Notes: a model not told the origin generated them from the letters alone. A DNA stretch of 64,000 nt from Candidatus Altiarchaeota archaeon (GCA_038891095.1 JAWAEV010000003.1:1-64000), one strand, 5' to 3'. Numbered from the stretch's first letter, positions 2,598-32,234 are shown. Made by a program: numbers and translations.

Positions 2598-3094
2598 ATG
2601 ATAATTTTCATTACAGGAAAGCCAAAATCTGGGAAAACAATATTAGTAAGAGAAATTATAAAGGAATTAGAAGGTAGGAAAATTTCAGGAATAATAACTC
2701 CTGAATTCAAAAATGAAAAATTCGTAAGAGAAGGCTTCTTTATTAAGATTTAAATTCTGGTAAAAGAGAAATTCTTGCATCTGTTAAGATAAACTCTAAA
2801 CAAAAGTTATTAAATATTATTTGGATACTGAAGCTATAGATAGAATTCTTGAATTATTTCCTAGATTATTTCAAGATTCTGGAATATGTAGTGCAGATAA
2901 CTCGAGGCTATGGAATTAAAATCAAAAAAATTTCAAAAGATAGAAAATATCTTAGAGCATAAGAAATTTTTTATTATTGTTTTGCATAGAAATCTAATTG
3001 AGAAATACAAAAGCAAAGGAGAGCTTTTTTGGATAGAAAAAATTTTGATGAAGTTAAAAAGAGGATAGTTAGCATGATAAATTGTAGTGCCTAA
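2598..3094 (+). pseudogene. Frameshifted THEP1/NTPase_1 family nucleoside triphosphatase
   Basis: MIIFITGKPKSGKT (Walker A)...GIITPE...REGF stops at 2751-2753. Later fragments in other frames read DLNSGKREILAS, KYYLD, AMELKSKKF, IIVLHR and NFDEVKKRIV, implying several 1-nt deletions. Confidence 0.8.
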
Positions 3095-3095
3095 C
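3083..3095 (+). repeat. Dispersed 13-bp repeat TGTAGTGCCTAAC, copy 1
   Basis: Exact match to copies at 27164 (rc), 29315 and 32222. Contains the terminal TAA of the NTPase pseudogene's last frame. Confidence 0.9.
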
Positions 3096-3136
3096 TTACC
3101 AACCAAGTTTTTAATTTTTCTTTTAAAATTCTTTAC

Positions 3137-4009
3137 ATGAAGTTATCTAATGCTATAAAGCTAACAATTGTTATGTTAATTTGGGCATCATCATGGATCT
3201 TTATAAAATTTTCCTTAGGATATGTGAAACCATTCTCATTAGCATTTCTAAGATTTTTCTTAGCTTCTATTTTGTTATTTCCTATAGCTATGCTCAGAAA
3301 AAAGGGAGAAATGCAAAAATTTTCTTTAAGTGATTTGAAAATCTATTGCATTCTTGCATTAACAGGAGTAACATTACTTTATGTCTTTGAGTTTATTGCT
3401 TTGCTTTATACAACAGCAATAAATGCTTCTCTCTTAATAAACCTTTCAGTTATATTCGTTGCTTTGTTTACATTTTTTTTCTGGGGTGAAAGATTAGAAA
3501 GGAGTGCTTTAGCAGGAATAGTTATCTCTTTAGTTGGAGTTTTCCTAATAGTAACAAAAGGGAAGCCATTTGAATTTTTTACTGAGAAGAGCTTTATTGG
3601 TGATCTCCTAATTATATCTTCAGCATTTCTTTGGATGGTTTATACTATTGTTGGAAAAAAATTTCTTGAAAGAAAAGATCCGTTAGTTGCAACAGCATAT
3701 ACATTCGCCTTAGGCACAATTTTTTTAATTCCTTTTGCTTTTTATGACAATTTAGCATCGATATTTGAAATCCCATTCATAACATGGCTTGCAATTCTTT
3801 ATTTAGCAATTTTTTGCTCAGTAATTGGATATTTTATATGGGCTCAAGTTATAAAAGAGGAATTAGCATCAAAGGTTTCAGTTTTTCTGTATATGGTACC
3901 TTTATTCACTGCAGTTTTCTCAGTTATATTTTTGAATGAAGAGATAACAATTTTCATTATTTTAGGAGGATTTTTAGTTATTTTTGGAGTTCATTTAGCG
4001 GAAAAGTAA
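3137..4009 (+). CDS. EamA/DMT family transporter
   Basis: About 10 TM segments in two EamA halves; IWASSWIFIK, AFLRF, GDLL, FLNEEIT. Confidence 0.9.
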   Translation: MKLSNAIKLTIVMLIWASSWIFIKFSLGYVKPFSLAFLRFFLASILLFPIAMLRKKGEMQKFSLSDLKIYCILALTGVTLLYVFEFIALLYTTAINASLLINLSVIFVALFTFFFWGERLERSALAGIVISLVGVFLIVTKGKPFEFFTEKSFIGDLLIISSAFLWMVYTIVGKKFLERKDPLVATAYTFALGTIFLIPFAFYDNLASIFEIPFITWLAILYLAIFCSVIGYFIWAQVIKEELASKVSVFLYMVPLFTAVFSVIFLNEEITIFIILGGFLVIFGVHLAEK

Positions 4010-4010
4010 A

Positions 4011-5087
4011 ATGTTACACTTGAAAGTTAAAAAAAGCGAAGGTGAAAAAACAAGAAAAATTTTAATTAAAAAAAATGTATTAAACAAAGATAAAAAAATT
4101 TTAAGTAAAGATAACTTTTTGTTTTTTCCATTAAAGAAAAAAGTTAATATCTCTGGGGAAATTGTTGATATTAAAGCTGGAAAAAAAGAGGGGAGAAAGA
4201 AAAGAATAGAAGATTTCTTAAAGGGAAAAATAAGTGAAGACGAAATTAAGCTAATTCCAAGATCATTTGATTTAGTTGGGGATATAATAATTTTAGAGCT
4301 AAATGAAAAACTTAAAAAAAAGAGAAAGATTATCGCTGAAGCCTTTTTAAATGCAAACAAACATGCAAAAACTGTTCTAAGAAAAATCTCAAAAAGAGAA
4401 GGCGAGTTCAGAATAAGAAAATTTGAGATTCTTGCTGGTGAAAATAAAACTGAAACAATTCATAAAGAGTATGGCTCCTTGATAAAGATTGATGTAGCAA
4501 AAGTTTATTTCTCTCCAAGAGAAGCATTAGAAAGACAAAGAATAGCCTCTCTTGTTAAAGAAAATGAAAAAATTTTAGTAATGTTCTCTGGAGCAGCACC
4601 TTTTGCAATACAAATTGCAAAAAAACAGCCGAAATGTAGTATTACATGTATCGATTCAAATCCAAAAGCGATAGAATACGCAAATGAAAATATTCGCATA
4701 AATAAAATTTCTGACAGAGTTAAAAATTATTGTATTGATGTTAGAGAAATTCAGAAAAAAATTAATGAAAAATTTTCCCGCATAGTAATGCCTTTGCCAA
4801 AAGGTGCTCATGAGTTTTTAGATATTGCAATACCTTTGTTAGAAGATGGGGGAATTTTGCATTTTTATCATTGGGCAAAAGAAGATGATCTATTCTCAGA
4901 AGCTGAGAATTTAATTAAAGAGAAGGCAAAAAAATTTAAAAAAAATGTAAAAATTTTGGATAGGAGAAAAGTTTTACCTTATGCACCAAGAACTTGGAAA
5001 ATTGCTTTAGATGTTTGTTTTTCAAGTGAAACTAAACACTCACAGGAAGTGAAAAGAGATTCCATCCAAAATAAAGTGGAAAAGTAA
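4011..5087 (+). CDS. trm5: Trm5/TYW2-family tRNA G37 SAM-dependent methyltransferase
   Basis: PRSFDLVGDIII, GEFRIR, TIHKEYG, KVYFSPR, MFSG, RIVMPLP, LHFY. Confidence 0.85.
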   Translation: MLHLKVKKSEGEKTRKILIKKNVLNKDKKILSKDNFLFFPLKKKVNISGEIVDIKAGKKEGRKKRIEDFLKGKISEDEIKLIPRSFDLVGDIIILELNEKLKKKRKIIAEAFLNANKHAKTVLRKISKREGEFRIRKFEILAGENKTETIHKEYGSLIKIDVAKVYFSPREALERQRIASLVKENEKILVMFSGAAPFAIQIAKKQPKCSITCIDSNPKAIEYANENIRINKISDRVKNYCIDVREIQKKINEKFSRIVMPLPKGAHEFLDIAIPLLEDGGILHFYHWAKEDDLFSEAENLIKEKAKKFKKNVKILDRRKVLPYAPRTWKIALDVCFSSETKHSQEVKRDSIQNKVEK

Positions 5088-7440: not shown

Positions 7441-7521
7441 TTTGAATATTGATTAATTTATATAGCCTTTCATCATATTTATATAACTTATATAACCCCT
7501 GGTATATAAAAAATTCTAAAA

Positions 7522-7674
7522 ATGGTTGTTGAGTATGAGGAATATAAAGGAAATAAGTTGATTGTTTTAAAAAGGGATGAGAACGATCGTTTTGGCTTCA
7601 AATTCGGAAAAAGAAAAGCAAAGTTAATCGTTGAAAATTTTGAAGCAATAAAAGAGTTTGCAGAAAAAGAGTGA
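7522..7674 (+). CDS. Small 50-aa conserved-looking hypothetical protein (absent from ORF track)
   Basis: MVVEYEEYKGNKLIVLKRDENDRFGFKFGKRKAKLIVENFEAIKEFAEKE. TATA-like GTATATAAA at ~7502 and AAAAATG start context. Confidence 0.75.
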   Translation: MVVEYEEYKGNKLIVLKRDENDRFGFKFGKRKAKLIVENFEAIKEFAEKE

Positions 7675-7715
7675 GGATTCTTAGCTTGTTAAAAAAGCTT
7701 GCCTGAGCTATTGAA

Positions 7716-8057
7716 ATGAAAATAGGGAGAGAATTTTATTTTGATGCTGCACACTTTTTGCCAAGATATAAAGGAAAATGTGAGAGATTCCATGGACATA
7801 CTTATAAGTTTGAAGTTATTATTGATGGAGAAATTCAGAAGAATGGTATGGTACTGGATTTTAATGATTTGAATAAAATTGTTAATGAAAAAATTTTGAA
7901 TTTTTTAGACCATAGAAACTTAAATGAAATTTTTAAGCAGCCAACTGCTGAGAGAATTGCAGAATGGATCTTTTCTAAATTAAAAAAAGAATTGCCTTGT
8001 TTATATTCAGTAAAACTTTGGGAGGGTAAAGGTAAATGGGTTTTGATAGAGAAGTGA
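7716..8057 (+). CDS. queD: 6-carboxy-5,6,7,8-tetrahydropterin synthase
   Basis: FDAAHFL, CERFHGHTY, GMVLDF, LDH, PTAE, LWE. Confidence 0.95.
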   Translation: MKIGREFYFDAAHFLPRYKGKCERFHGHTYKFEVIIDGEIQKNGMVLDFNDLNKIVNEKILNFLDHRNLNEIFKQPTAERIAEWIFSKLKKELPCLYSVKLWEGKGKWVLIEK

Positions 8058-8153
8058 TAATAAAGTTAAAAAGATGGTAGCTTAGGTTGTTATTCAAAAA
8101 TATAAAAAACTAAACTATTTTTGTTAATCCTTTTTAATATACTCTATACCACA

Positions 8154-8846
8154 ATGAAGAAAAAGGCAATCTGTTTGCTCTCAGGTGGTTTGGATTCAGC
8201 AGTTACAACTGCAATTGCCTCTCAAAATTATGAAATTTTTGCCTTAACTTTTTTATATGGGCAAAAACACAAAAAGGAGCTAAATTCAGCTAAAAGATTA
8301 GCAAAGTTTTTCAAAGTAAAAGAGCATAAAATTTTAAAAATTCCATTACAAGAGATTTCTTCTTCCTCATTAATAGACAAAAAGGTAAAAATTCCAATAG
8401 GCAAAAGCTACAAAGAAATAAAAAAATCTAAAGTTATACCAACAACCTATGTAGCTGCTAGGAATATTATCTTTCTTGCATATGCTTTAGCATATGCTGA
8501 AGAAGTTAATGCTGAGAAAATTTTCATCGGAGCTAACCAGATAGATTACTCGCATTATCCTGATTGTAGAAAAGCTTTCATAGAAAAATTTCAGGATATT
8601 GCAAAAGTTGGAACTAAAGCAGGAGTTGAAGGTAAGTGTATAGAAATTGAAGCACCTCTATTAAAAATGTCAAAGGCAGAAATAATAAAAAAAGGTCATG
8701 AACTTAAAGTTCCTTTTGAGCTAACATGGAGTTGTTATCAAGGCAGGAAAAAAGCTTGTGGTGTTTGTGAAAGTTGTATTTTAAGATTGGACGGATTTAA
8801 AAAGGCTAATCTAAAAGATCCTCTGGAATATGAAAAAAGAAATTAA
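8154..8846 (+). CDS. queC: 7-cyano-7-deazaguanine synthase
   Basis: LLSGGLDS, YGQKH, TYVAARN, YPDCR, TWSCY..CGVCESC. ATG at 8154 preferred over TTG at 8121. Confidence 0.95.
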   Translation: MKKKAICLLSGGLDSAVTTAIASQNYEIFALTFLYGQKHKKELNSAKRLAKFFKVKEHKILKIPLQEISSSSLIDKKVKIPIGKSYKEIKKSKVIPTTYVAARNIIFLAYALAYAEEVNAEKIFIGANQIDYSHYPDCRKAFIEKFQDIAKVGTKAGVEGKCIEIEAPLLKMSKAEIIKKGHELKVPFELTWSCYQGRKKACGVCESCILRLDGFKKANLKDPLEYEKRN

Positions 8847-9459
8847 ATTTTTTGTAAATGAAATTTTTCAAAGCATACAAGGTGAAGGTCTTCTCTTAGG
8901 TACAGGGATGAACTTTATAAGGTTTACAAAATGCAACAAATCTTGTAAATGGTGCGACACAAATTTTAAAAAAGGTAAAGAGATGAATATTAAAGAAATC
9001 TTAAAAAGATTGGATAGAAGATTTAGATGGGTTTCTCTCACTGGTGGTGAGCCAATGCTGGAAAAAAATCTCTCAAAATTGATAAAAAGATTGAGAAAGC
9101 AGAAATATAAAATTTTTTTGGAAACAAATGCTACTCTATTTGATGAAAAAATTTTTTCTATATGTGATTTTATTTCAATTGGTTTAAAAGCGCCCTCAAG
9201 TGGAAATTCATATTATAACGAAAAGGTTTTTTCTTATGCTATAAAACATCCAAAGAAGACTCAGATAAAAGTTGTAATCCATAGCAAAGAGGATATTTCT
9301 TTCTTCAGAAAAATTTATAAAAGTAATGAAAAATACAAAAATTGGATCTTACAACCAGAGTGGTCTGTAATGAAAAAGTTAGATTATAATGCCATAATAA
9401 GAGAATTTCCAAAAGTTAGGATAATTCCTCAAACTCATAAAATTTTGAAAGTAAAATAA
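8830..9459 (+). CDS. queE: 7-carboxy-7-deazaguanine synthase (radical SAM)
   Basis: EIFQSIQGEG, CNKSCKWCDT, LTGGEP, ETN, IIPQTHK. Confidence 0.95.
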   Translation: MKKEIKFFVNEIFQSIQGEGLLLGTGMNFIRFTKCNKSCKWCDTNFKKGKEMNIKEILKRLDRRFRWVSLTGGEPMLEKNLSKLIKRLRKQKYKIFLETNATLFDEKIFSICDFISIGLKAPSSGNSYYNEKVFSYAIKHPKKTQIKVVIHSKEDISFFRKIYKSNEKYKNWILQPEWSVMKKLDYNAIIREFPKVRIIPQTHKILKVK

Positions 9460-9460
9460 A

Positions 9461-11299: not shown

Positions 11300-11346
11300 A
11301 GGTTTAATCTAAAGTATTAATTTGCACTTTTTGTTAAAGCTAAAAA

Positions 11347-14836: not shown

Positions 14837-17800
14837 ATGATAGTAAGAAAAAAAATTAAGGCTATAGAATTTGGACTTTTTTCTCCAGCAATGATCAAAA
14901 AGCTATCTGCAGTAAAAATTTTTACTTCAAATACTTATGATGAAGATGGTTATCCTATTGAAGGCGGTTTAATGGATCCAAGATTAGGGGTAATTGATCC
15001 AGGTATAAGATGCAAAACTTGTGGTGGTAGACTTGGAGAATGCCAAGGACATTTTGGGCATATTGAATTAACAAGACCAGTTATTCATGTTGGATACGCA
15101 AAAGAAATTTATAAATTGCTAAAAATAACATGTAGAAGTTGCTCAAGAATTTTGCTTTCTGAAGATAAAATAAAGAAGTTAAATTCTATAGATGAAATAA
15201 TTGAAAATGCTGCAAAGGTAAATGAATCTCAAGGTAAATGCCCTTATTGCAATGAACAACAAATAAAAATAAAATTTGTTAGGCCATATTCCTACTATGA
15301 AGGAGAAACATCTTTATTGCCAACTGATATAAGGGAGAGATTTGAAAAAATAACAGAAGATGACTTAAAGCTATTAGGAGTTAAAATAAGGCCTGAATGG
15401 ATGATTCTTTCCGTTCTGCCTGTTTTGCCAATAATAGTCAGACCTTCAATAACTCTTGAATCAGCAGACAGAAGTGAAGATGATTTAACTCATAAATTAG
15501 TTGATATTTTAAGGATAAACCAAAGATTGGAAGAAAATATAAATTCCGGAGCACCGCAACTAATTGTTGAGGATCTTTGGGATCTATTACAATATCATGT
15601 TGCAACTTATTTTGACAATGGTATCATAGGAATTCCACCTGCAAGACATCGATCTGGTAGACCATTAAAGACAATTACTCAAAGACTTAAAGGTAAAGAA
15701 GGTAGATTTAGAAATAATTTATCTGGTAAAAGGGTAAATTTCTCTGCAAGAACAGTAGTTAGCCCAGACCCAGAGATATCGATAAATGAAGTTGTTGTAC
15801 CAAAAGTTATCGCAACTGAGCTAACTATTCCTGAAGAAGTTAATGAAAGAAATATTAAGAAACTTAGAGAACTTATATTGAATGGACCAAACGCACATCC
15901 CGGAGCTAAAAATGTGATAGTTGAATATGGAAGAAAAAGAGTTATGGAGAGTAATAAAAAGGAAATTGCAGCATCTCTAAAAGAAGGCGATATAGTTGAA
16001 AGAACTATAAAAGATGGCGATTTAGTTATATTCAACAGACAACCTTCATTACATAGAATTTCAATGATGTGTCATCAAGTTAAAGTTCTCCCATATAATA
16101 CCTTTAGGTTAAATACTGCCGTTTGTGCTCCATATAATGCAGATTTCGATGGAGATGAAATGAATTTGCATGTCCCACAAACAGAAGAAGCAAGAGCTGA
16201 AGCAGAGATACTTATGAAAGTTCAGGAATGCATTCTTTCTCCAAGATATGGCAGGCCAATAATCGGTGGTAGACATGACCATGTTACTGGAACTTATTTG
16301 CTTACTAAGAAAGACTCAAAATTTGATAGAAAAACAGCATTAAATTTGGTTAAAGACTTAGCTGAGCTGCCTAAGGATAAAAAAACTTTTACTGGAAAAG
16401 AAATTTTTTCATTTCTTTTACCAAAAGATTTTTCTGTTAAATATAAAGCAAAATTATGTAAAAAGTGTGAAACTTGTAAAAAAGAGAAATGTGAGGATGA
16501 AGCTTATGTTGTTATAAATAATGGTACATTAATTTCAGGAGTAATTGATTCTCAGGGAATGGCAGGAACATTAGTAAATGAATTGTTCCTTAGATATGGC
16601 TCAGACATAACAAGAGAATTTATTGATAAATCTACAAAACTTGCAATAAGGGTTGTTATGCTTCATGGCTTTACTATTGGTATAGACGAGGAAGATCTAC
16701 CTACAAAAGAGATAAATGAAATAAGTAAAGTTATATCAAAGAGTGATGAGATTGTGAATTCTTTAATTAAAGAATTTAATGAAGGTAAATTAAAACCAAT
16801 TCCTGGAAAGTCATCAGAGGAATCACTTGAAGATTATATAATGGCTGAATTATCAAAAGCAAGAAATGATGCTGGTAAGATAGCAGAGAAATTTGCAAAA
16901 GATAACTTTTTAGCTGTAATGGCAAAGATAGGTGCTCGAGGCTCATTATTAAATTTAACTCAAATGAGTGCTTGCGTAGGTCAACAAGCAGTTCGTGGAA
17001 AAAGAATTAAGAGAGGTTATTTTGCAAGAACACTTTCTCATTTCAAAAAAGGTGATGTCTCTGCTAGTGCTAATGGATTTGTATCATCAAACTTTAAAAA
17101 TGGTTTATCTATGAAAGAATACTTCTTCCATGCTATGGGTGGAAGAGAAAGCTTAGTTGACACTGCCATTAGGACTGGTAGATCTGGGTATATGCAAAGA
17201 AGGCTTATTAATGCTTTACAAGATCTTAGGGTTTATCCTGATTTAAGTGTTCGTGGAACTCCAGGTATAATCGTCCAATTTAAATATGGTGAAGATGGTG
17301 TTGATCCATCTAAAAAAGGTTATCTCAAATACAAAGAGGAAAACTATATAAAGAAGGCATTAGTTGTTCCTGGTGAGGCTGTCGGTACTGTTGCTGCTCA
17401 ATCTATTGGTGAACCAGGAACTCAAATGACTTTAAGAACTTTCCACTATGCAGGTGTTGCTGAATTAGCTGTGCCACTTGGCTTACCAAGATTAATAGAG
17501 ATTATAGACGCAAAAAGATCTCCAAATAATCCAATGATGACAATTTACTTAGATGAAAAAAATAGAAAAAGTAGGGAATTCGCAGAGTCTCTTGCTAATA
17601 AATTACAAGAAATTTTCCTCAAAGATGTTTCAAAAATTGAAGTTAGTATAGAGAGAAAAGAAATTATTGTTGAAACTGATAACGAAGAAGCAAAAGCCAT
17701 TCTCGAGAAAATTTCTGAAAATAGTTCAAAGAATAAATTTGTAATAAAGAAAAAATCTTTGATAGAGCTGAAAAAATTAATGAATAAACTAGAGAAGAAA

Positions 17801-18322
17801 AGACTTTCAGGAGTAAAAGGGATCAAAAGGGTTTTTGTAAGAGAACAAAATGGTGAATTTGTGATCTATACTGAGGGTTCAAATTTAAAGGCAATTCTTA
17901 GCTTAGAAGGAGTTGATAAGGAGAGAACAACAACAAATGATATACAACAAATCTATGAAGTTTTAGGTATAGAAGCAGCAAGAAATGCAATTATAAATGA
18001 AGCAATGAAAGTTCTTGAAGAACAAAGGTTAGATGTTGATATAAGGCATATAATGCTAGTTGCTGACAGAATGTGTGTTACAGGCGAGCTACAAGCAGTT
18101 GGAAGAACCGGCATTAGTGGTTCTAAGGAATCAGTTCTTGCAAGAGCTGCATTTGAAGAAACTGAAAAGCATATATTAAATGCTGCTCTTTATGGAGAAG
18201 TTGATACTCTTAGTGGTGTTGCCGAAAATATAATAATAGGTCAACCAATTCCAATTGGAACTGGAACTGTTGAGTTAGAGGTTAAAAAAACTCAAGAAAA
18301 GAAAAATGAATCTAAAGACTGA
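14837..18322 (+). CDS. rpoA: RNA polymerase subunit A, A1 and A2 fused in one ORF
   Basis: NADFDGDEMN and TGRSGYMQRRL (A1), then in frame PGEAVG..AQSIGEPGTQMTLRTFH and ARAAFE (A2). Confidence 0.95.
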   Translation: MIVRKKIKAIEFGLFSPAMIKKLSAVKIFTSNTYDEDGYPIEGGLMDPRLGVIDPGIRCKTCGGRLGECQGHFGHIELTRPVIHVGYAKEIYKLLKITCRSCSRILLSEDKIKKLNSIDEIIENAAKVNESQGKCPYCNEQQIKIKFVRPYSYYEGETSLLPTDIRERFEKITEDDLKLLGVKIRPEWMILSVLPVLPIIVRPSITLESADRSEDDLTHKLVDILRINQRLEENINSGAPQLIVEDLWDLLQYHVATYFDNGIIGIPPARHRSGRPLKTITQRLKGKEGRFRNNLSGKRVNFSARTVVSPDPEISINEVVVPKVIATELTIPEEVNERNIKKLRELILNGPNAHPGAKNVIVEYGRKRVMESNKKEIAASLKEGDIVERTIKDGDLVIFNRQPSLHRISMMCHQVKVLPYNTFRLNTAVCAPYNADFDGDEMNLHVPQTEEARAEAEILMKVQECILSPRYGRPIIGGRHDHVTGTYLLTKKDSKFDRKTALNLVKDLAELPKDKKTFTGKEIFSFLLPKDFSVKYKAKLCKKCETCKKEKCEDEAYVVINNGTLISGVIDSQGMAGTLVNELFLRYGSDITREFIDKSTKLAIRVVMLHGFTIGIDEEDLPTKEINEISKVISKSDEIVNSLIKEFNEGKLKPIPGKSSEESLEDYIMAELSKARNDAGKIAEKFAKDNFLAVMAKIGARGSLLNLTQMSACVGQQAVRGKRIKRGYFARTLSHFKKGDVSASANGFVSSNFKNGLSMKEYFFHAMGGRESLVDTAIRTGRSGYMQRRLINALQDLRVYPDLSVRGTPGIIVQFKYGEDGVDPSKKGYLKYKEENYIKKALVVPGEAVGTVAAQSIGEPGTQMTLRTFHYAGVAELAVPLGLPRLIEIIDAKRSPNNPMMTIYLDEKNRKSREFAESLANKLQEIFLKDVSKIEVSIERKEIIVETDNEEAKAILEKISENSSKNKFVIKKKSLIELKKLMNKLEKKRLSGVKGIKRVFVREQNGEFVIYTEGSNLKAILSLEGVDKERTTTNDIQQIYEVLGIEAARNAIINEAMKVLEEQRLDVDIRHIMLVADRMCVTGELQAVGRTGISGSKESVLARAAFEETEKHILNAALYGEVDTLSGVAENIIIGQPIPIGTGTVELEVKKTQEKKNESKD

Positions 18323-21848: not shown

Positions 21849-21849
21849 T

Positions 21850-23980: not shown

Positions 23981-23981
23981 A

Positions 23982-25016
23982 ATGAATAAGAAAGATTTTC
24001 TTAAGAAAGAAGTAAAACACATTGATATAACTTCTTTTGATGCTACAAAAATAATTAATGCTATGCGAGAAATGTCTTTTACTGCAAGAGAGGTTGCAAA
24101 AGCTGCTGATATTTTTGATAGGATGATAACAGATAAAGAATGTACAATAATTTTATGCATTGCAGGTAGTACAAGTGCTGCAGGTTGCATGAAAATTTAT
24201 TCTGATATGGTTAAGTATAAGATGGTTGATGTTATTGTTGCAACTGGAGCAACAATTGTTGATATGGATTTTTTTGAAGCATTGGGATTTAAACACTATC
24301 AAGGCACTCAATATGTTGATGATTCTCTACTTAGAAAACATTATATTGATAGAATTTATGATACTTTCATTGATGAAGAGCAATTACAAATTTGTGACAA
24401 TACAATAAAGGAAATTGCAGATTCATTAAAGCCAGGAGTTTACTCATCAAGAGAATTTATAATTGAAATGGGTAAGTATCTTGAAAAAAATGCAAAAAAG
24501 AAGAATTCCTTAGTTGAATTAGCTTATAAACATAATGTTCCAATTTTTTGTCCAGCATTTTCTGACTCAAGCGCTGGTTTTGGTTTAGTTAAGCATCAAT
24601 ATGAAAGAAAAAATAAGCCACATGTTTCAATCGACTCTGTAAAGGATTTTAAGGAGCTCACAGAAATTAAAATTAATTCTCCAACTTCGGGGCTTTTTAT
24701 GATTGGTGGGGGAGTTCCAAAAAATTTTGCACAAGATTGTGTTATCTGTGCTGAAATTCTTGGCAAAAAAGTCCCAATGCATAAATATGCTGTTCAAATA
24801 ACAGTTGCTGATGTTAGAGATGGCGCTTGCTCTTCTTCAACTCTGAAAGAAGCAAGTTCTTGGGGCAAAGTTAATTTTTCATTTGAAAATGAGCAAATGG
24901 TCTATGCAGAAGCAACATCTGTCTTGCCATTAATTATAAGTTATATCTACCATAAAGGAAACTGGAAAAAAAGAAAGGAAAGAAAATTTAATAAATTTTT
25001 TGAAAAAGAAAAATGA
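23982..25016 (+). CDS. Deoxyhypusine synthase-like protein (bacterial-like clade; possible homospermidine synthase)
   Basis: [38 protein letters not shown] (catalytic Lys). Confidence 0.85.
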
Positions 25017-25555
25017 TACCAAGGAAATGTTTTTTTACTAAGGGTGTTGGAATTCATAGAGATAGATTAGCTGCATTTGAGTTAGCATTGAGAAAGGCAG
25101 GTATACAGAAGTGTAATCTTGTCAATGTTTCGAGTATATTCCCACCAAACTGCAAGCTCATTCCAAGAGAAAAAGGGATTGCACTTCTAAAGCCAGGACA
25201 GATAACTTTTGTTGTAATGGCAAGGAATGAAACAAATGAGCCAAACAGATTAATTTCTGCAGCAATTGGCTTAGCATTGCCTAAGGGTGGTGAAGGCTAT
25301 GGATATTTATCAGAGCATCACTCATTTGGAGAAGTTGCAAAAAAAGCTGGTGAATATGCTGAGGATTTAGCAGCAACAATGTTAGCAAGTACTCTTGGGA
25401 TAGATTTTGATATAGATAAAGCATGGGATGAAAGAAAAAAAATTTACAGAGCAAGCGGTAAAATATTCAAGACAACTCATGTTGTTCAGTCAGCGGAGGG
25501 GCATAAAGATGGTTTATGGACAAGTGTAGTTGCAGCAACAGTTTTCATTCCATAA
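25013..25555 (+). CDS. pdaD: Pyruvoyl-dependent arginine decarboxylase
   Basis: [42 protein letters not shown]. Confidence 0.93.
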
Positions 25556-25557
25556 TT

Positions 25558-26784
25558 TTAAAAATTTATACCTAAATAAAATAGTATTACTGGTATAATA
25601 AGAACTCCCATTGAATGACTTCTTTTTATTTTAGATAAAGGTGCTATAATTCCTATAGATGTACTTACTAACAATATAAGAATGCCGTTTAGTCCTGTGA
25701 AAATAAAACAAAGGAAAAATAAAAGTATGAGTATTATTAAGGAAATTTTTGAATATGGAAACTTTTGGATAAACTTCAGAATTTTATTACCAATATATAA
25801 AGTTAAAATTGCTGAAATTCCCACAGATATAAGTGAAACTGAGATTAAAAGAAGAATATCATAAATGGTAAAATTTTCTAATAAATTTCTTATAGCAATT
25901 GCTGCTCCAGATCTTGCTCTTTTTACTGTATAAAGTGAAAGGATTGATATTAGAGCAACTGCAGTGTTAACACCTCCAACAGAAATTAAAAACTCTCGTG
26001 GATCTTTTTTCTTTGTTAGTTCTTGTGTTAAAACTGTTGCTTGCGCAGCTCCAACTCCTGGGAGTAATCCAAGTAATATGCTTGCAAAGAATGCTTTTAT
26101 GCTTCCAGAAAAAATCAATTTTCTTTCAGTATTAAATATAACTTCTTCTTGTGGTGGTATATTACTCTTATGTTTTAAACTTAAAAGAAGCGTCGGTATA
26201 CCAAAAAGCCCTGTAAATATTGGGAATAAAACAAAATTTTCTGGTAGAATTCCGGAATTTAATGTTATTATTCCTAAAGAACCTGAAAGTAAAAAAACTA
26301 AAACTGAGAAGAAAATTCGTTCTTTGTTTTTTTCTGTTAGAATCATAAAAAAGCATATAACTAACAAAACAAAGGCAATGTAAAATTTTAATAGGCCATG
26401 AATTATTGGCAAAATAAAAAGCAAAAGAGGTGTTAAAACAAAGAAAAGTAATGTCGTGAAAACTCCGCCAGATGTTGTTAGAAATAATGCTTCGAGCCCT
26501 TTTCCTTGTAGTAAAAGTCTATGCCCTGGAAGAACTGAAAGTGCTGTTGCTTCTTCTGGAGCACCAAGAAAAATTGATGGTATAAAATCAACAATCGTGC
26601 TTGTTATTGCTGCTGAAATAATAAAAGTGATAAGTCCATAAACAGAAATGTTCAAATCAATAAAAAATGCTGAGAATAGGGGGATTAACAGATAGATTGT
26701 ATTTACATGAAGTCCTGGTAGCAAACCAGAAATTATTCCAAGGGATATTCCTAAAAAAATAAAAAATAAAATTTCAAGGAACAT
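25558..26784 (-). CDS. Archaeal TctA-like (DUF112) membrane protein
   Basis: GLLPGLHVN, DFIPSIFLGAP..TALSVLPGHRLLL.G.G, RARSGA; multi-TM. Confidence 0.85.
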   Translation of the reverse strand: MFLEILFFIFLGISLGIISGLLPGLHVNTIYLLIPLFSAFFIDLNISVYGLITFIISAAITSTIVDFIPSIFLGAPEEATALSVLPGHRLLLQGKGLEALFLTTSGGVFTTLLFFVLTPLLLFILPIIHGLLKFYIAFVLLVICFFMILTEKNKERIFFSVLVFLLSGSLGIITLNSGILPENFVLFPIFTGLFGIPTLLLSLKHKSNIPPQEEVIFNTERKLIFSGSIKAFFASILLGLLPGVGAAQATVLTQELTKKKDPREFLISVGGVNTAVALISILSLYTVKRARSGAAIAIRNLLENFTIYDILLLISVSLISVGISAILTLYIGNKILKFIQKFPYSKISLIILILLFFLCFIFTGLNGILILLVSTSIGIIAPLSKIKRSHSMGVLIIPVILFYLGINF

Positions 26785-27163
26785 TCTTATTAAATTCAAC
26801 TTTGTTGCAGATTATCTCTAAGTTACCATTGTATAAATTCACTTTACCATAAACACAAACATTATCATATTTTTTGATTAAATAAGGGTCAATTTCATTT
26901 TTAATTTTCTGTGCAGTTGAGTTGAATATAACGACATTTATGCTAGCATCTCTCTCTTTAAGTTTCAGAAATATATGGCCATTCTTTGAAATTTTTCTCT
27001 CAGAAATTTCACCACACGTTTTTATATAATTGTTTATATCATCTGTACTTATAGAACTTACTTCTCTTTCTTTAATTTTTAAGTTAGAGACAACAAAGAA
27101 GAGTATTATTAATCCAACTAATGATGTGACTATTGCTATATTTCTTAAATTTTTTTCATTCAT
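26774..27163 (-). CDS. Membrane-anchored OB-fold nucleic-acid-binding protein
   Basis: N-terminal TM, then GHIFLKL...INVVIF...V.VYGKVNLYNGNLEII. The ATG at 27163 directly follows the 13-bp repeat. Confidence 0.75.
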   Translation of the reverse strand: MNEKNLRNIAIVTSLVGLIILFFVVSNLKIKEREVSSISTDDINNYIKTCGEISERKISKNGHIFLKLKERDASINVVIFNSTAQKIKNEIDPYLIKKYDNVCVYGKVNLYNGNLEIICNKVEFNKNVP

Positions 27164-27176
27164 GTTAGGCACTACA
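27164..27176 (-). repeat. Dispersed 13-bp repeat TGTAGTGCCTAAC, copy 2
   Basis: GTTAGGCACTACA on the + strand. Encodes the last codons and stop of nadC (CSA*). Confidence 0.9.
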
Positions 27177-28040
27177 ATCATCCTTCACTTTCTTGCATAT
27201 TTTGTAAATTTCTAAGCTCATATCCAATGCCCTCACTGAGTGAGTTAACATTCCTATAGAGAGAATGTCAACACCAGTAGATGCAAAACCTTCAACATTC
27301 TCTAGAGTTATACTCCCAGATGCTTCTAACAAAACTTTATCTCTCAAATTTTCCTTTTTTAAAATTTCTATCGTTTTTTTAATTTCAACTATTGAGAAAT
27401 TATCTAACATAATTATATCTGCTCCATTTTTCGCTGCTAATATTGCATCTTTCACTGAGGAAACTTCGATTTCAATTTTATGAGCAAACGACACTTGCTC
27501 TTTTGCTTTTTTCAATGCATTTTTAACATTTCCAAAAATTTTTAGATGGTTATCTTTTATTAAAATCATATCATAAAGACCATGACGATGGGTATCACCT
27601 CCACCAATTTTAACTGCTTTTTTATCAAAATAAGAAAAAAGGGGTAAAATTTTTCTCGTTGCAGCAATTCTTATTTTAGGATTTTTTTTCCTTGCCTTTT
27701 CAACAAATTCTCTTGTCAGTGTTGAAATTCCTGACATTCTTGACAAAATATTAAGAGCAGTTCTTTCAACAAGAAGAATTTCTCTGATATTTCCTTTTAA
27801 TTTAAAAATAACTTTACCTTTACTTATCTTAGAACCATCTTTTATCTTTTTTATTATTTTTATATTAAAAATTTCAAAAAGCACAGATAACTCTGAAATT
27901 CCAGAAACAATACCAATATCTTTTGAAATTATTTTTGCAAGAACCGTTTTCTCAGGAACTAACTCTGAGGTTATATCACTATCTTTATAATCCTCTTCTA
28001 TCATCTGTAAGAATTTTCTTTCAAGAAATTTTCTATTCAT
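27165..28040 (-). CDS. nadC: Quinolinate phosphoribosyltransferase
   Basis: ERTALN..SGI, ATRK, GGG.THR.GL.DMILIKDNH, EIEV, IIMLDN, EASG. Confidence 0.95.
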   Translation of the reverse strand: MNRKFLERKFLQMIEEDYKDSDITSELVPEKTVLAKIISKDIGIVSGISELSVLFEIFNIKIIKKIKDGSKISKGKVIFKLKGNIREILLVERTALNILSRMSGISTLTREFVEKARKKNPKIRIAATRKILPLFSYFDKKAVKIGGGDTHRHGLYDMILIKDNHLKIFGNVKNALKKAKEQVSFAHKIEIEVSSVKDAILAAKNGADIIMLDNFSIVEIKKTIEILKKENLRDKVLLEASGSITLENVEGFASTGVDILSIGMLTHSVRALDMSLEIYKICKKVKDDCSA

Positions 28041-28076
28041 ATTTGGAGATTTAAAAAGAGAAAGAGTTTGCAGGGA

Positions 28077-28367
28077 TTACTTTTTTATTTGTGCTTGTGT
28101 TTCTACTTGTTTTTTACCTTCAGTTAATGGATTTTTTTTACAGATTACAACATCACCAACTTCGATAACTTCGTTATAGCCTATTGTTTCTGTTTGAAGA
28201 ATTTTTTTTACTTCATCTTCGGGCAATGTTCTTGCTTTAAAAGATCTTAAACATAAACGCATTACTTCACCAGTTTCTAAATTTAAAATAACATCTTCAA
28301 CTCTACCAACATGTTCCGCTTTTCTAGTATAAATTTCAAGTCCATATAGTTGGGATAATCTCTTCAT
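28077..28367 (-). CDS. PRC-barrel domain protein
   Basis: LSQLYGLEIYT..A..VGRVEDVILNLE.G, V..VGDVVI. Confidence 0.85.
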   Translation of the reverse strand: MKRLSQLYGLEIYTRKAEHVGRVEDVILNLETGEVMRLCLRSFKARTLPEDEVKKILQTETIGYNEVIEVGDVVICKKNPLTEGKKQVETQAQIKK

Positions 28368-28447
28368 TTTTATTTGTTTAATAATGTTAATTAATGTAAA
28401 ATTAAGTATAAAAACTATAAAAATTAAAGTTTAGTTTATTTATTAGA

Positions 28448-28490
28448 TTGGGGGTGGGGGGTCACTTCCACTATTCATTGTATTTGAAAT
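28448..28490 (+). repeat. GC-rich repeat copy A (inverted relative to copy B), upstream of nadX
   Basis: TTGGGGGTGGGGGGTCACTTCCACTATTC. Core 28459-28476 matches the reverse complement of 29355-29372 at 17/18 nt. Confidence 0.8.
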
Positions 28491-28502
28491 TAAATTTAAA
28501 AA

Positions 28503-29285
28503 ATGAAAAGACTTGGGCTTTTAGGTTGTGGGAATATCTCTAAAGGGATTGTAAAAGCAATTAATGAAGGTAAAATTAACTTTAGAGTTACATCTTTGTT
28601 TGATACTAACTTAGAAAAAGCAAAAGAACTAGCAAAAGATATTAAACCAAAACCAAAAATAGCTAAGAATATCGAAGAATTTCTTAGAGAGGTTGATATT
28701 GTGTTCGAAGGTGCATCTCAGGATGCTGTTTTTGAATACGCTGAAAAAATTTTAAGTAAAAAAAAGGAGTTAGTGATTATGAGTGTTGGTGCTTTAGTTA
28801 ATGAAAATTTTTTTGAAAAATTGAAAAAAATTGCTGAAAAAAATAGAGTTTGTATATATATACCATCAGGTGCTATTTTAGGTGTTGATGGTTTAAAAGC
28901 AGCAAAAATTTCAAAGTGTGAAGAAGTTGTATTAACAACAAGAAAAAACCCTAAGAGTTTTGGTTTGAAAAATAAAAAAGAAAAAATTATTTTTGAGGGC
29001 TCTGCAAAAGAAGCAGTAGTGAAATTTCCAAGAAATATAAACATAGCTGCAACATTGAGTTTAGCAGGAATTGGATTCAAAAAAACAAAAGTTAAAATTA
29101 TTTCTGATCCAAAAGTTAAAGAGAATATCCATGAAGTTTATGTAAGGGGAAATTTTGGTGAATTTTTAATTAGAACAAAAAATCTACCTTCCTTAGAAAA
29201 TCCAAAAACATCATACTTAGCTGTCCTTTCTGCAATTTCAATTTTAAGAAAAATTGAGAGTAGCTATATACAAATAGGGACATAA
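28503..29285 (+). CDS. nadX: L-aspartate dehydrogenase
   Basis: GLLGCGNI, MSVGAL, PSGAILGVDGL, TTRKNP, FPRNINIAA, NPKTSYLA. Confidence 0.93.
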   Translation: MKRLGLLGCGNISKGIVKAINEGKINFRVTSLFDTNLEKAKELAKDIKPKPKIAKNIEEFLREVDIVFEGASQDAVFEYAEKILSKKKELVIMSVGALVNENFFEKLKKIAEKNRVCIYIPSGAILGVDGLKAAKISKCEEVVLTTRKNPKSFGLKNKKEKIIFEGSAKEAVVKFPRNINIAATLSLAGIGFKKTKVKIISDPKVKENIHEVYVRGNFGEFLIRTKNLPSLENPKTSYLAVLSAISILRKIESSYIQIGT

Positions 29286-29314
29286 CATTAAATTTTTATA
29301 ATTTTTAAAACTTA

Positions 29315-29327
29315 TGTAGTGCCTAAC
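29315..29327 (+). repeat. Dispersed 13-bp repeat TGTAGTGCCTAAC, copy 3
   Basis: Exact copy ~30 bp after the nadX stop. Shares 16 bp (ATGTAGTGCCTAACTC) with copy 4. Confidence 0.9.
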
Positions 29328-29340
29328 TCATAGATTTACA

Positions 29341-29383
29341 GTTTAAATATAAGAGAATAGTGGAAATGACCCGCCCCACTCAA
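29341..29383 (-). repeat. GC-rich repeat copy B, downstream of nadX and of the Lon-like ATPase
   Basis: GAATAGTGGAAATGACCCGCCCCACTCAA on +; imperfect reverse complement of copy A. Confidence 0.8.
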
Positions 29384-29396
29384 CTACCTTATTAGA

Positions 29397-30851
29397 TCAA
29401 CCATAACCTTTATAGTCACTACTATCAAAACCACTACCAATATCCTCTCTTTCAAGACCTTTCCATATAGAGCCATATCTTTCTTTTATTTGGTGCTCAA
29501 TTGGTTTGCATTCAACAAGTGCTTTCTTTACATGCTCCTTTTCTATAAATTCTGACTTTTCTGAAATCGCTAAATCACCTGCTAATCTTATTAATCCTCC
29601 CAATTCTCTAAGCCTTAATGTCAGTGCATCTTTAACTTTATCAATAAAAAAAGCTCTTCTTTTTGCTTCCTCTATGATTTCATTAACTGCTTCAATTTTT
29701 GCATGTGGTATCTTTCCATCAAGTAAAATTTCTTGTGCTACAAATTGAGCTATTTTTTGTCTGTTTTTTTCATTATCCGGCATAGTAGTTTCAAGCAAAA
29801 TTTCATACCCGTTACCAAGAATTCTTGAGCGTAGTGGATTTAGGATTTTTCCTATATCTTGAATGTTACATGCGCCAACAAAAATAAAATCACAAGGCAC
29901 AAAGTCAACTCTAACACTAGCGCCAGCAGACATAGGATTTCTACCAACAATAGGAAAATTTTTATTTTGCATTGCTGTTAAAATGAAATTCTGTAATCCT
30001 GCCATATGTGGTAATTCATCAATGAAAAGAACGCCTTCATGAGCTTCATGAATTGCACCAGGAATAACTCTTAGATAAGCAGGAGTTCCAATTTCAGGAT
30101 GAGAACCATAAGGATCATGCCTCACATCACCTAAAAGCTCTGTTTCAGAAGCACCAGTTGCTTGAACAAATGGAAATCTATTTATAGGAACTAAAACTTT
30201 CATCAGCTTTTTTTCTTTTTTAGCTTTTAAATTTTCAATTGTTTTTTGATCAATAACTCTTATTTTATCGCCAACTCTTTGATAAATTAGAATTGTTTCA
30301 TTGCCATTGCTATCAACCTTCAATGCAGCAACTTCTCTTTCAGGAATTTTGGTAGAAAAATCAAAAACATCAGTTATTATATCACTAAAAGGTGAAAATC
30401 CTTTTAAATTTGATCTTGAAAATTTTGTAGAATTACATTTTGGGCATAAATATTCATTAGGAGAACTTAAAGAACCACAATAATGGCATCTAAACCCAAG
30501 TTGTTCAGCAATTAATGGTGGAGCAGTAGACGGATTTATAAATTCACCAATAATCTCCTCTTTATTTTCTCTTTTCTCTATTTCCTCTCTTTTCACAATT
30601 TCTAAAATTGGCCTTTCTGGGTTTTCAGGATTATGCAAAACTCTTATCTCTTCATTTGGTTTTGGTAATTTCAATGCTAAAGCTTGAGCTAACATAGATT
30701 TACCTATACCTGGGGGTCCAACAAGCAAAAGGTGTCTCCTTTGTTTTATCGCTATTTTAACTTTCTCTACAGCTTTTTCCTGACCAATTATTCTATCTAA
30801 TGGATCCTTTGGCACAGAAATTTCCTTTGTAGTTTCAATTCCATTCATCAA
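29397..30851 (-). CDS. LonB-type AAA+ ATPase with Zn-ribbon insert, lacking protease domain
   Basis: IIGQEKAV, GPPGIGKS, CHYC..CPKC, LLGDVRHDP, HEAHEGVLFIDE, PLRSRI.G.GYE, LRELGGLIR.AGDLA. Ends without the Ser-Lys domain. Confidence 0.88.
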   Translation of the reverse strand: MMNGIETTKEISVPKDPLDRIIGQEKAVEKVKIAIKQRRHLLLVGPPGIGKSMLAQALALKLPKPNEEIRVLHNPENPERPILEIVKREEIEKRENKEEIIGEFINPSTAPPLIAEQLGFRCHYCGSLSSPNEYLCPKCNSTKFSRSNLKGFSPFSDIITDVFDFSTKIPEREVAALKVDSNGNETILIYQRVGDKIRVIDQKTIENLKAKKEKKLMKVLVPINRFPFVQATGASETELLGDVRHDPYGSHPEIGTPAYLRVIPGAIHEAHEGVLFIDELPHMAGLQNFILTAMQNKNFPIVGRNPMSAGASVRVDFVPCDFIFVGACNIQDIGKILNPLRSRILGNGYEILLETTMPDNEKNRQKIAQFVAQEILLDGKIPHAKIEAVNEIIEEAKRRAFFIDKVKDALTLRLRELGGLIRLAGDLAISEKSEFIEKEHVKKALVECKPIEHQIKERYGSIWKGLEREDIGSGFDSSDYKGYG

Positions 30852-30857
30852 TATAAC

Positions 30858-32027
30858 TTATGTTCTTTCTGTTAAAATTTTGATTCCTTTTGGGTTTATA
30901 ATGGCTGCTTTACTCAATCCAATTATGTACTTTACTTTACTTTCTGCTGCACTATCAATAAGTCTTTGTGTTATTATACCATCAAAAGCGACATATGTTG
31001 GTTGTATATCCCTAAGGCTGTTAATTAAATCTTTCGTTTCAATCTCAGTTATAAGTTCCTTTTCGTCATCATATAATGCTGCCATAAATTTACCCTTTAC
31101 TGGTTTTAATAATTCTAACAAATTTTCTTCACTCTCATTAGTTCTACTTTCTATACTAAGTTCAATTTTCTCCTCTTCTTTTACATTTTCTAGTTTTTTA
31201 ATTTCTTGGTACTCTTTCATCTGAGTTAGTGGAACTTTCCTTCTCAATGCCATTATAATCTCCTTTTTTCCAAGTTCTTCAACTTCTTTTCCTTTTGGAG
31301 CTCTTGCTACATAGTCTATTTCAGCAACTTGTGCTAATTCCTTTAAAATAATCTCCCCACCACGATCACCATCTAAAAAGGCAATTGTTGTTTTTTCCTT
31401 TGAGAGTTCAGTTATTTCTTTTGGTATATTTGTACCGCCAATAGCAACAACATTTTTAATTCCTGCTTTCAACAAATTTAATACATCTGCTCTTCCTTCA
31501 ACAAGTATCACAGATTCAACATTTTCTATATCCGGACCAGCAGGTAAGCCTTTATATATTGAAATTTCTGATAATTGCACAGATTTTTTAACTTCTTCAG
31601 ATAGTTTTTCACTTTCTGGAATTTCTTCTTCAAGCATCTTCTTTAATAACTCTTTAGCTCTTTCGACTATCTGCTTCCTTTTTGCAACTCTAGCATCCTC
31701 TATTTTATTGACTGTAATTTTAGCATTACATGGGCCTACACGATCAACACTTTCAATAGCCGCAGCAATAATTGATGTTTCAACCATATCCAAACTTGAT
31801 GGCACAATAATTGTTCCACTTGATTTTCCAACTTTTGCTTCTAATTCAACTTCAATTCTACCAACTCTTCCTGTCTTTTGCAATTCTCTAAGTTCTAAAT
31901 CCTCACCTAATAAACCTTCAGATTGACCAAATATGGCACCAACCACATCTGGCTTTTCAACTATTCCGTCAACCACTATATTTGCATAAATATTGTACTT
32001 TATAGTATCTGCTGGCGCTTTTGCCAT
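30858..32027 (-). CDS. dnaG: Archaeal DnaG (TOPRIM; exosome-associated)
   Basis: [50 protein letters not shown] at 32027 with a GAGGTGA Shine-Dalgarno. Confidence 0.95.
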
Positions 32028-32047
32028 TTTAATCACCTCAAAATTTA

Positions 32048-32168
32048 GAAATAACAAAAATCAACACATCAGTCAAGATAACTAAAACTTACAAAATTTG
32101 AAGTAATACCCAAATCTAAAATACGAACATGATATGATTCTTGACGATGAGATTGATTTTGTTATTTC
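32048..32168 (-). other. Long imperfect hairpin in dnaG 5' region
   Basis: Arm 32048-32078 GAAATAACAAAAATCAACACATCAGTCAAGA pairs with 32139-32168 TCTTGACGATGAGATTGATTTTGTTATTTC. Confidence 0.7.
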
Positions 32169-32221
32169 AATAATATTCTTAAATTGAATGTTAATAAATC
32201 AAATAGAAATTTATATAAAAA

Positions 32222-32234
32222 TGTAGTGCCTAAC
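32222..32234 (+). repeat. Dispersed 13-bp repeat TGTAGTGCCTAAC, copy 4
   Basis: Exact copy between the Zn-finger gene end and the putative dnaG TATA box (TTTATATAAAAA just left of it). Confidence 0.9.

Follow-up and report, generated by a model that had tools for sequence, protein, structure and literature searches.

What is the function of a 13-bp word that recurs, letter for letter, at the gene boundaries of an uncultivated archaeon? The stretch that raises this question, referred to here as the window, is 64,000 nucleotides long and forms the first 64 kb of contig C3 of a Candidatus Altiarchaeota genome (GCA_038891095.1, JAWAEV010000003.1:1-64000). The word, TGTAGTGCCTAAC, is designated W and occurs in the window four times (Table 1). 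An initial annotation had seen an integron-like core in W and had proposed that its copies are scars or targets of a gene-shuffling system. Of that interpretation, the view that W is nonrandom and tied to gene ends stood, and the recombination scars or targets found no support. We tentatively consider that W, written TGTAGTGCCTAA(C/T) with pyrimidines prevailing in the flank that follows, is instead a cis-acting DNA signal of the whole lineage that is under selection and is not a recombination scar. By analogy with known systems, and with the same reserve, W could be a polar protein-binding site, not previously described, that is most similar to replication-fork barrier (Ter-type) sites. A protein-binding site was among the alternatives that the annotation listed; the others on its list, a 3′-end signal and a DNA-uptake sequence, rank lower in our analysis.

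Exact copies of W in the window and its genome

The window's genome (G000; 958,546 bp in 15 contigs, 31% GC, 93.65% complete) contains six exact copies of W, compared with 0.005 to 0.016 expected under Markov models of order 0 to 4. Within the window, exactly four matches are found at up to two mismatches and every one is exact, at the positions and on the strands that the initial annotation had reported. When the window was shuffled 100 times with its dinucleotides preserved, the mean number of matches at this threshold was 0.58 and none of the 100 shuffles reached four; the annotation's figure of approximately 0.001 expected copies per window is in line with our estimate. The genome also holds two one-mismatch and nine two-mismatch variants, versus approximately 0.7 and 15 by a hand estimate from base composition. 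The excess in this genome is confined to the exact copies, and variants of W are not in excess.

The flanks of the four window copies are unrelated to each other, and a small dyad, TAG-N3-CTA, can be read inside W. Translation bore out that nadC and the last frame of the broken NTPase gene both finish in CSA* inside the word and that the ATG of the next gene, which encodes a membrane-anchored OB-fold protein, follows copy 2, one base later. The statement that no copy lies inside a gene body is true of the window and fails genome-wide, since the copy at C1:39675 is in frame (VVPN) within a 421-aa glycosyltransferase-like open reading frame (ORF) and many copies in relatives are intragenic. Copy 3 lies 29 nt past the nadX stop, in sense to nadX, and 69 nt past the stop of the LonB-like ATPase gene, in antisense, and this is the orthologous position that is conserved family-wide.

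Conservation of W across the order

Of 41 related genomes, 32 carry the exact 13-mer, in up to 58 copies, and none of the other members of the family (21 genomes) is without it; the reversed word, used as a control in the same 41 relatives, gave 2 matches in total. The 12-mer core, TGTAGTGCCTAA, has 574 matches in 61 genomes of the phylum, nearly all of them within one order, versus 12 for its reversed control. All genomes with at least three copies of the 12-mer belong to three families (f1, f4, and f7) of that order; 12 genomes of two more distant families (f8 and f9) have 0 or 1 copy each. Copy number ranges from 6 to 60 per genome, the maximum being 60 in 1.4 Mb, and density in the hosts is one copy per 24 to 160 kb. 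The GC content of the loci spans 0.31 to 0.62, and the spacers between copies are unalignable. Among 62 distinct contexts, bias outside the word is seen only at position −1 (A/T) and at positions +1 to +4 (pyrimidines, T-rich), with T in 45, C in 10, A in 7, and G in none at +1. The final C of W is variable, being T in the TGTAGTGCCTAAT arrays of G011 and G004, and G011 carries four perfect 28-nt tandem units with ...CCTAAT.

No "dialect" of W was found in W-negative genomes, either after nadX or among repeated 10- to 12-mers, over 80 kb of G026 and at four further loci. In the single-contig relative G026, an unrelated intergenic repeat of the hairpin type, around GATTCACGGGAC, occurs four times in those 80 kb (C1, 356 to 436 kb). 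In a literature search, W and its complement, as DNA or RNA, matched no paper that was found, and topic searches combining Altiarchaeota with integron, repeat, or motif returned nothing on W.

Positional orthology, gene context, and origin of W copies

Orthologues of the LonB-like ATPase are present in 39 of the 41 relatives. In family f1, 13 of the 17 loci with at least 83 nt of downstream sequence have W (at most one mismatch) no more than 150 nt from the ATPase stop, always in antisense; in G005 and G015, W lies further from the stop with its orientation unchanged. The ATPase loci of the other families have none within 450 nt of the stop (0/12), and the f7 genomes G029, G033, and G039 carry W arrays of the same polarity a few kilobases downstream of the gene. 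W is found 0 to 24 nt past the nadX stop, in antisense, in 10 relatives of f1 and f7 (117 nt in G001). The 3′ end of the nadC gene or nadC-cutA unit carries W in sense in the window, G014, and G018 (f1) and in G029 and G039 (f7). Orthologous W sites thus persist while the adjacent noncoding DNA is unalignable, and therefore each site is under purifying selection. Between two species of one genus, W copies are retained while the spacers have diverged and array copy number has altered. The arrays of the relatives are direct tandem repeats of up to six copies at a spacing of 17 to 134 nt, and no helical periodicity is present among 41 array spacings.

We classed 129 copies of the 12-base core from 67 loci and the genome by gene context, using our own longest-ORF calls. 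Convergent genes flank 39 copies, 23 lie between tandem genes in antisense to both, 11 lie between tandem genes in sense, 11 are in divergent (promoter) regions, 35 are inside ORFs, and 10 are at locus edges. Stop codons are often abutted or supplied by W, in either orientation. Of 18 W-holding ORFs, 13 have clear Pfam domains, and the W-bearing real genes of relatives encode AcnX, phosphoglycerate mutase (apgM), aspartate dehydrogenase (nadX), L-aspartate oxidase (NadB), TatD (twice), TiaS (twice), Sua5, an epimerase, an FAD oxidoreductase, and TnpB (twice). The reading of intragenic copies is uniform in the 14 ORFs checked: all 11 antisense copies encode (K/E/G)LGTT and all 4 sense copies encode VVPN. 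Where genus g8 has the site (ELGTT) in its nadX, other genera have SLGSG, SFGLK, or TLGVD in the alignment, with no indel. Because homologous residues are swapped without an indel, W arose there in place by nucleotide substitution and not by insertion.

Polarity of W and the dnaG-lonB-like-nadX island

Neighboring W units were compared for orientation from hand-copied position lists, with arrays closer than 150 nt collapsed to one unit. On contigs outside the island described below, 31 of 37 neighboring units within 10 kb are co-oriented (binomial P = 4e-5, a value overstated by the kinship of the genomes). This orientation is independent of gene direction: the copies of locus L065 are all in sense, those of L026 are all in antisense, and the right arm of the island in G014 combines antisense intragenic with sense intergenic copies, all on the plus strand.

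On island contigs, 18 neighboring pairs have the same orientation, 16 run minus then plus, and 1 runs plus then minus. The minus-to-plus flip falls in the same gene neighborhood in f1, f4, and f7, whose order is DUF167, dnaG, and the lonB-like ATPase gene; then an ssb-like OB protein gene and serB; then nadX, traB-like, PRC, and nadC. In the window, the flip lies between 27164 (−) and 29315 (+). A two-gene module (small SSB-like OB protein plus SerB) stands between inverted W arrays in nine of 15 mapped genomes. The gene beside the ATPase gene is serB in five genomes (g2, g3, g4, and g5) and ssb in three (g7 and g9), and G012 (g6) has serB alone in the same orientation. Outside these nine, G005 (g6) has an array-flanked segment with serB in the orientation that places ssb near the ATPase gene, together with uncharacterized ORFs. 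The ssb-serB segment has undergone one clean inversion, bounded by the arrays and symmetric about the flip, and this is the only rearrangement seen there. The arrays around ssb-serB in G017 form a perfect 65-nt inverted repeat. The window's genome is without the module and retains the ATPase-proximal W.

We considered and set aside the idea that the island is a replication origin marked by Orc1/Cdc6 origin recognition box (ORB) elements, for which an ORB consensus was used in the comparison. In 10 genomes, orc1/cdc6 lies on contigs other than that of the W island and never on the island contig, no W arrays flank orc1 in G024, G029, G033, and G039, and no cluster of the TCCASTGGA motif described below stands beside orc1.

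W in viral contigs

IMG/VR was scanned for W plus T, and most hits were single and presumably due to chance. Prominent among the contigs is G041 (45,496 bp, with terminal repeats), which has 14 exact 12-mers and 5 one-mismatch copies, all 19 on the plus strand, where approximately 0.006 copies are expected by composition. Their density is approximately one per 2.4 kb. ORFs cover 37,683 bases of its minus strand and 3,213 of its plus strand, and the 12 W copies that lie inside ORFs all read xLGTT. A single 1,374-aa ORF (L280, 9577-13701) holds seven copies, including two 15-nt tandem pairs. G041 encodes portal and terminase-like proteins, a tyrosine integrase, two ParB-like proteins, and a fusion of 3′-phosphoadenosine 5′-phosphosulfate (PAPS) reductase with ligase; the 1,374-aa ORF is this fusion, of a PAPS-reductase domain with an ATP-dependent DNA ligase domain.

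In G043 (25 kb), four of four copies are on one strand across a switch of gene direction. Each of four related head-tail-like contigs (about 11 kb; terminase, portal, and capsid) has one tandem pair of W in its main noncoding region, adjoining terL. In one of these regions, upstream of terL in G046 (L296, ~9150-9450), the pair is interleaved with four TCCASTGGA motifs, which we take to resemble archaeal origin boxes, and it may be the replication origin of this ~11.8-kb tailed-virus-like genome. Pfam recognized no replication genes in G046. Three further contigs (G042, G044, and G045) were set aside as protein-level coincidence, given that an 11-mer there lies in a repeated peptide of a giant ORF and has synonymous variants.

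The TerL of G041 has no match in the 41 relatives, and a comparison of the W-bearing viral contigs with host proteins gave only two weak matches, both in the window's genome (a 44-aa integrase-like fragment and a ligase region). One report (PMC8324899) describes Altiarchaeum viruses of the head-tail type with terminase, portal, and PAPS reductase.

A possible polar barrier site as the preferred explanation

We read W as a DNA-level, direction-dependent site because it is a selected, asymmetric 12- to 13-mer with tens of copies that is tolerated in coding sequence, prefers gene 3′ ends, and forms arrays, and also because its co-orientation is independent of transcription, its groups are opposed at one locus, and viruses use it on a single strand. 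The data establish that W is nonrandom, conserved, positionally orthologous, polar, arrayed, made by substitution, and present in viral contigs; binding by a protein, a barrier role, and a tie to replication are inferences. In the mechanism that we propose, a sequence-specific factor would bind W as a one-way barrier or guide for DNA-tracking machines. The site is asymmetric and would act in a direction-dependent manner, with copies within about 10 kb co-oriented whatever the direction of the genes. At the dnaG, lonB-like ATPase, [ssb-serB], nadX, and nadC locus, the two groups of W point apart and could form a fork trap; if the 5′ (TGTAG) face blocks, the island would trap forks trying to leave. 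Copies at gene ends, mostly antisense to the gene that they face, would stop head-on traffic and let co-directional traffic pass. The polarity so assigned is self-consistent: antisense copies account for 19 of 19 in G041, 23 versus 11 in tandem pairs, and 11 versus 4 inside genes. Viral contigs with W would exploit the host factor and keep traffic on their own DNA one-way. The complete scheme is doubtful as it stands: archaea with a W-bound one-way barrier for replication forks, and perhaps for RNA polymerase, a fork trap at dnaG/lonB-like/nadX, guard sites at gene ends, and viruses that copy W.

Two groups of known barriers are the nearest analogies. Ter sites resemble W in copy number and in their strictly conserved asymmetric core. 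As in Tus-Ter of Escherichia coli, RTP-Ter of Bacillus subtilis, and the plasmids R6K and R1, W is an asymmetric site with a strict core of about a dozen bases. Such sites number from a few or about ten to a few tens of copies, lie within genes or between them, and function according to orientation; two opposed groups flank one chromosomal region, and extrachromosomal replicons borrow the site near their origin. Unlike bacterial Ter, W forms tandem arrays (up to 6), reaches 60 copies per genome, has a strong preference for gene 3′ ends, and has many dispersed copies of mixed orientation on large contigs, and its link to replication is at this point presumptive. No Tus or RTP (replication terminator protein) homologue is known. 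The barriers at the 3′ ends of eukaryotic rDNA (TTF-I Sal boxes, Reb1, and the Fob1 replication fork barrier) are likewise polar arrays of an exact protein-binding word downstream of genes, where co-directional traffic passes and head-on forks are stopped or transcription is terminated. They are confined to rDNA, whereas W is genome-wide and also intragenic, and we identified no Myb-type factor.

Several observations weigh against a polar barrier. No binding factor was found among ParB_N proteins or among proteins shared by host and virus, although the Tus and RTP families were not part of the search. Arrays of up to 6 and totals of 60 copies per genome exceed known Ter systems, and a one-way replication barrier would not need the 19 copies that one virus carries. 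Copies in hosts lean only modestly toward antisense (23 versus 11 in tandem gene pairs and 11 versus 4 in checked genes), the context classes carry the limits of our ORF calls, and the related genomes are not independent of one another. Local polarity has exceptions, namely, copy 1 of the window and, in G018 and G004, the W that lies ahead of the DUF167-dnaG operon on its upstream side. Plain GC skew tracks gene strand, and third-position skew with gene strand as a covariate is weak, with unstable breakpoints (best absolute t of 2.3 to 4.6): the best breakpoint is at 30 kb on contig C3 (t = 2.3), and in G033, GC3 is best at 505 kb (t = 2.8) and AT3 at 460 kb (t = 4.6), not centered on the island. 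By a hand tally, 10 of 14 W copies that share a contig with orc1 fit a simple replichore rule, which is not significant. Finally, according to one report, termination in Sulfolobus is by stochastic fork collision (PMC3020120).

Alternative explanations

The first rival to a polar barrier is a Chi-like role, which we consider unlikely. In this case, W would be read on one strand by a DNA-end-processing helicase-nuclease, would switch degradation to repair and mark self DNA, and viruses would accumulate it in the protective orientation. The usage in G041 fits, with all 19 copies on one strand, about one per 2.4 kb, and many of them forced into coding sequence, and Chi-enriched phages show this pattern of one-strand accumulation. 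The local co-orientation and the flip at one locus would also suit a replication-oriented motif. Chi and W are both short, asymmetric, polar words; Chi is oriented with replication, as W may be, and some phages are enriched for the word in a single orientation. Chi, however, is 5 to 8 nt long and occurs every few kilobases, while W is 12 to 13 nt long, 5 to 30 times rarer in the hosts, and arrayed. A host density of one per 24 to 160 kb would seem far too sparse for W to meet a resecting enzyme, and tandem arrays and tight placement at stop codons are un-Chi-like.

Distinctly unlikely, in our assessment, is a role at the transcript level, in which W with its T tract is a one-way terminator or 3′-end signal, or in which an RNA-binding protein or small RNA recognizes its complement at mRNA 3′ ends. 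Among the 84 intergenic copies with genes on both sides, 39 are convergent and only 11 are divergent, stop codons are often abutted or supplied, and positions +1 to +4 are T-rich. For all 19 copies of G041, for 11 of the 15 intragenic copies checked, and in the 3′ regions of the ATPase gene and nadX, it is the complement of W that the mRNA-sense strand carries. Nevertheless, orientation tracks position and not gene direction (the G014 arm, L065, and L026), copies in sense are found inside Sua5, TiaS, and the epimerase gene, and many copies have no T run of at least 4. W shows no structure, and no complementarity to 16S rRNA extends beyond 10 to 12 of 13 pairs with G:U allowed. Pairing with rRNA was set aside as a separate candidate, as these best pairings with the 16S rRNA of four relatives were judged to be at chance level; the window's metagenome-assembled genome is without a 16S gene.

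It is improbable that W is a nonpolar protein site, that is, the operator of a global regulator or a nucleoid, partition, or condensin-loading site of the parS, matS, or Noc-binding site (NBS) type. Tens of near-invariant sites that are genic and intergenic, cluster at one locus, and are used by extrachromosomal elements would be expected of such a site, as would the TAG-N3-CTA dyad. Divergent promoter regions are avoided (11/84), however, and strong local co-orientation and single-strand use by viruses are unexpected of symmetric sites. The two ParB-like genes of G041 had prompted the idea of a ParB/parS system, which was rejected because ParB_N is present in only 3 of the 41 host genomes.

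Very improbable is a recombination site, the reading with which the initial annotation began; W would then form the core of a system for site-specific recombination or gene cassettes, or serve as the attachment (att) site of integrating elements. The last seven bases of W, GCCTAAC, do fit the RYYYAAC box of integron attC sites (GTTRRRY/RYYYAAC), in which a stop codon can lie, but the integron-like core itself did not hold up. GCCTAAC alone is not enriched in the genome (37 observed versus 30.9 expected), and the conserved unit of W is the 12-mer upstream of the final C, which varies. W is without the imperfect palindrome, fold, paired core, and integrase of attC. Taken with 25-nt flanks, none of the four sites of the window folds better than shuffled sequence (z scores of −0.43 to +1.12), and no oppositely oriented W within 150 nt was seen in the position lists of the genome and relatives. 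The annotation had called for a genome-wide count and had named few further copies as an outcome that would tell against its proposal; only 2 copies lie beyond the four in the window, and by this test of its own the proposal fails. It had also pointed to IntI and Xer recombinases. No tyrosine recombinase matched: PF00589 (Phage_integrase, XerA-type) has no match in the 93.65% complete genome, while 14 of 14 control genomes match, and PF00239 (resolvase) has no match in the same genome. The sole integrase trace in G000 is a 76-aa ORF (C5:36197-36427) that matches 44 residues of the G041 integrase.

Several observations speak for recombination. The ssb-serB segment is inverted between genera exactly between inverted W arrays, G017 has its perfect 65-nt inverted repeat there, and G041 encodes a tyrosine integrase. 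Contigs of relatives also end at or beside arrays (G001:C82, 2 nt past W; G001:C40, 9 nt past W), and G006:C50 and G009:C210 end just past the ATPase gene. On the other side, only one inversion state is found per genus, and intragenic copies arose by substitution. Across genera and families, W keeps both its gene ends and its orientation, which is stability and not shuffling. We also compared contigs from three other DNA samples and one RNA run over 24000-34500, with thin RNA coverage. A 27-kb contig, which comes from another sample and shows 109 differences, runs collinear with 24000-34322 across three W copies. No alternative joint at W was found in these three samples, a weak negative that rests on contigs; of the seven contig joints listed, none is at W, and all have sides under 30 nt. 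As an att site mimicking a tRNA end, W was rejected, given that none of the 12 ARAGORN tRNAs of the genome matches W or its complement at up to 4 mismatches.

The two remaining explanations are highly improbable. Accumulation by uptake bias, as for the DNA uptake sequence (DUS) of Neisseria and the uptake signal sequence (USS) of Pasteurellaceae, would account for an exact word conserved across a family or order, for copies made by substitution in tolerated frames of genes, and for enrichment at gene 3′ ends with a T-rich flank (as in USS), but known uptake sequences occur at about one per kilobase versus 6 to 60 copies of W per genome (approximately 100-fold less dense), and W has strong orientation effects (31/37 co-oriented neighbors), direct arrays in place of inverted pairs, enrichment in viral contigs, and no excess of one- and two-mismatch variants in the window's genome. 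A selfish short repeat, similar to repetitive extragenic palindromic (REP) sequences or miniature inverted-repeat transposable elements (MITEs) and spreading into neutral sites at gene ends, would be in keeping with the gene-end placement, the shifts in array copy number between close relatives, and the perfect 28-nt tandem units of G011, but W has no conserved flanks, no hairpin, and no palindromic unit of the REP/REPIN-MITE kind, at 13 nt is too short for an element, and persists at orthologous sites across families amid diverged surroundings with intragenic copies that are substitutions; no whole units with target-site duplications were seen to be present in one close strain and absent from another.

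Significance of W

Ter, Chi, the FtsK-orienting polar sequences (KOPS), parS, and uptake sequences are central to our understanding of the replication, repair, and segregation of bacterial chromosomes. To our knowledge, almost no genome-wide short signals have been defined in Archaea beyond origin boxes, and what is new here is a genome-wide functional oligomer in Archaea with a putative reader. W is letter-perfect across the order while the surrounding DNA spans 31 to 62% GC; its reader must be a conserved, highly specific factor, for which the word is usable as bait. Should W prove to be a fork barrier or a signal for end processing, termination of replication or repair of breaks would become testable in uncultivated archaea, and if the barrier reading is true, Archaea would have their first Ter-like system and their first defined zone of replication termination. 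The word could also serve as a lineage marker and a possible virus-host link, and it matters for assembly, as contigs of relatives often stop at W arrays.

Other features of the window

The organism is an archaeon, given that its genes include an intron-bearing tRNA, archaeal DnaG, GatD, TiaS, topoisomerase VI, Rpb-type RNA polymerase subunits, and Orc1/Cdc6. The coordinates of W and of the genes around it are collected in Table 1; the 51-aa zinc-ribbon ORF falls below the cutoff of the ORF listing.

Table 1. Positions of W and of neighboring genes in the window
Feature	Position	Strand	Remarks
W copy 1	3083-3095	+	Exact; stop (CSA*) of the last frame of the broken THEP1-like NTPase gene; EamA transporter ATG 41 nt downstream
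W copy 2	27164-27176	−	Exact; TAA stop of nadC (CSA*); ATG of the next gene one base later
W copy 3	29315-29327	+	Exact; between the convergent nadX and LonB-like ATPase genes
W copy 4	32222-32234	+	Exact; 45 nt past the stop of the 51-aa zinc-ribbon ORF, antisense to it; upstream of dnaG
Broken NTPase gene (P-loop GKPKSGKT, THEP1-like)	2599..3094	+	Three reading frames, pseudogene; last frame ends ...SMINCSA* inside W copy 1
nadC (quinolinate phosphoribosyltransferase)	27165-28040	−	Ends ...DDCSA* within W copy 2
nadX (aspartate dehydrogenase)	28503..29285	+	
LonB-like AAA+ ATPase, without protease domain	29397..30851	−	
Archaeal DnaG primase	30858..32057	−	Conserved dnaG-ATPase pair, on one side of the W polarity flip
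51-aa zinc-ribbon ORF, four CxxC motifs	32280..32435	−	Between dnaG and a macro-domain gene; 3′ end faces W copy 4

In most members of the order (loci L074 to L103), with or without W, the LonB-like ATPase gene is followed, directly or within about 45 nt of its stop, by a 21-nt element, GGGGGGTCAYTTCCWGTATTC (window ~29353-29377, minus strand). It has no Rfam match and may be a conserved 3′ element or a small RNA. Rfam searches of the whole window returned two tRNAs only, with no match at the W sites or at 29200-29500. One of the tRNA genes, 109 nt long at 43221-43329 (−) and presumably intron bearing, is found by Rfam and missed by ARAGORN. Archaea usually have the largest RNA polymerase subunit split into A′ and A″; in the window, this subunit (14837-18322, +) is encoded by a single 1,161-aa ORF with Rpb1 domains 1 to 5.

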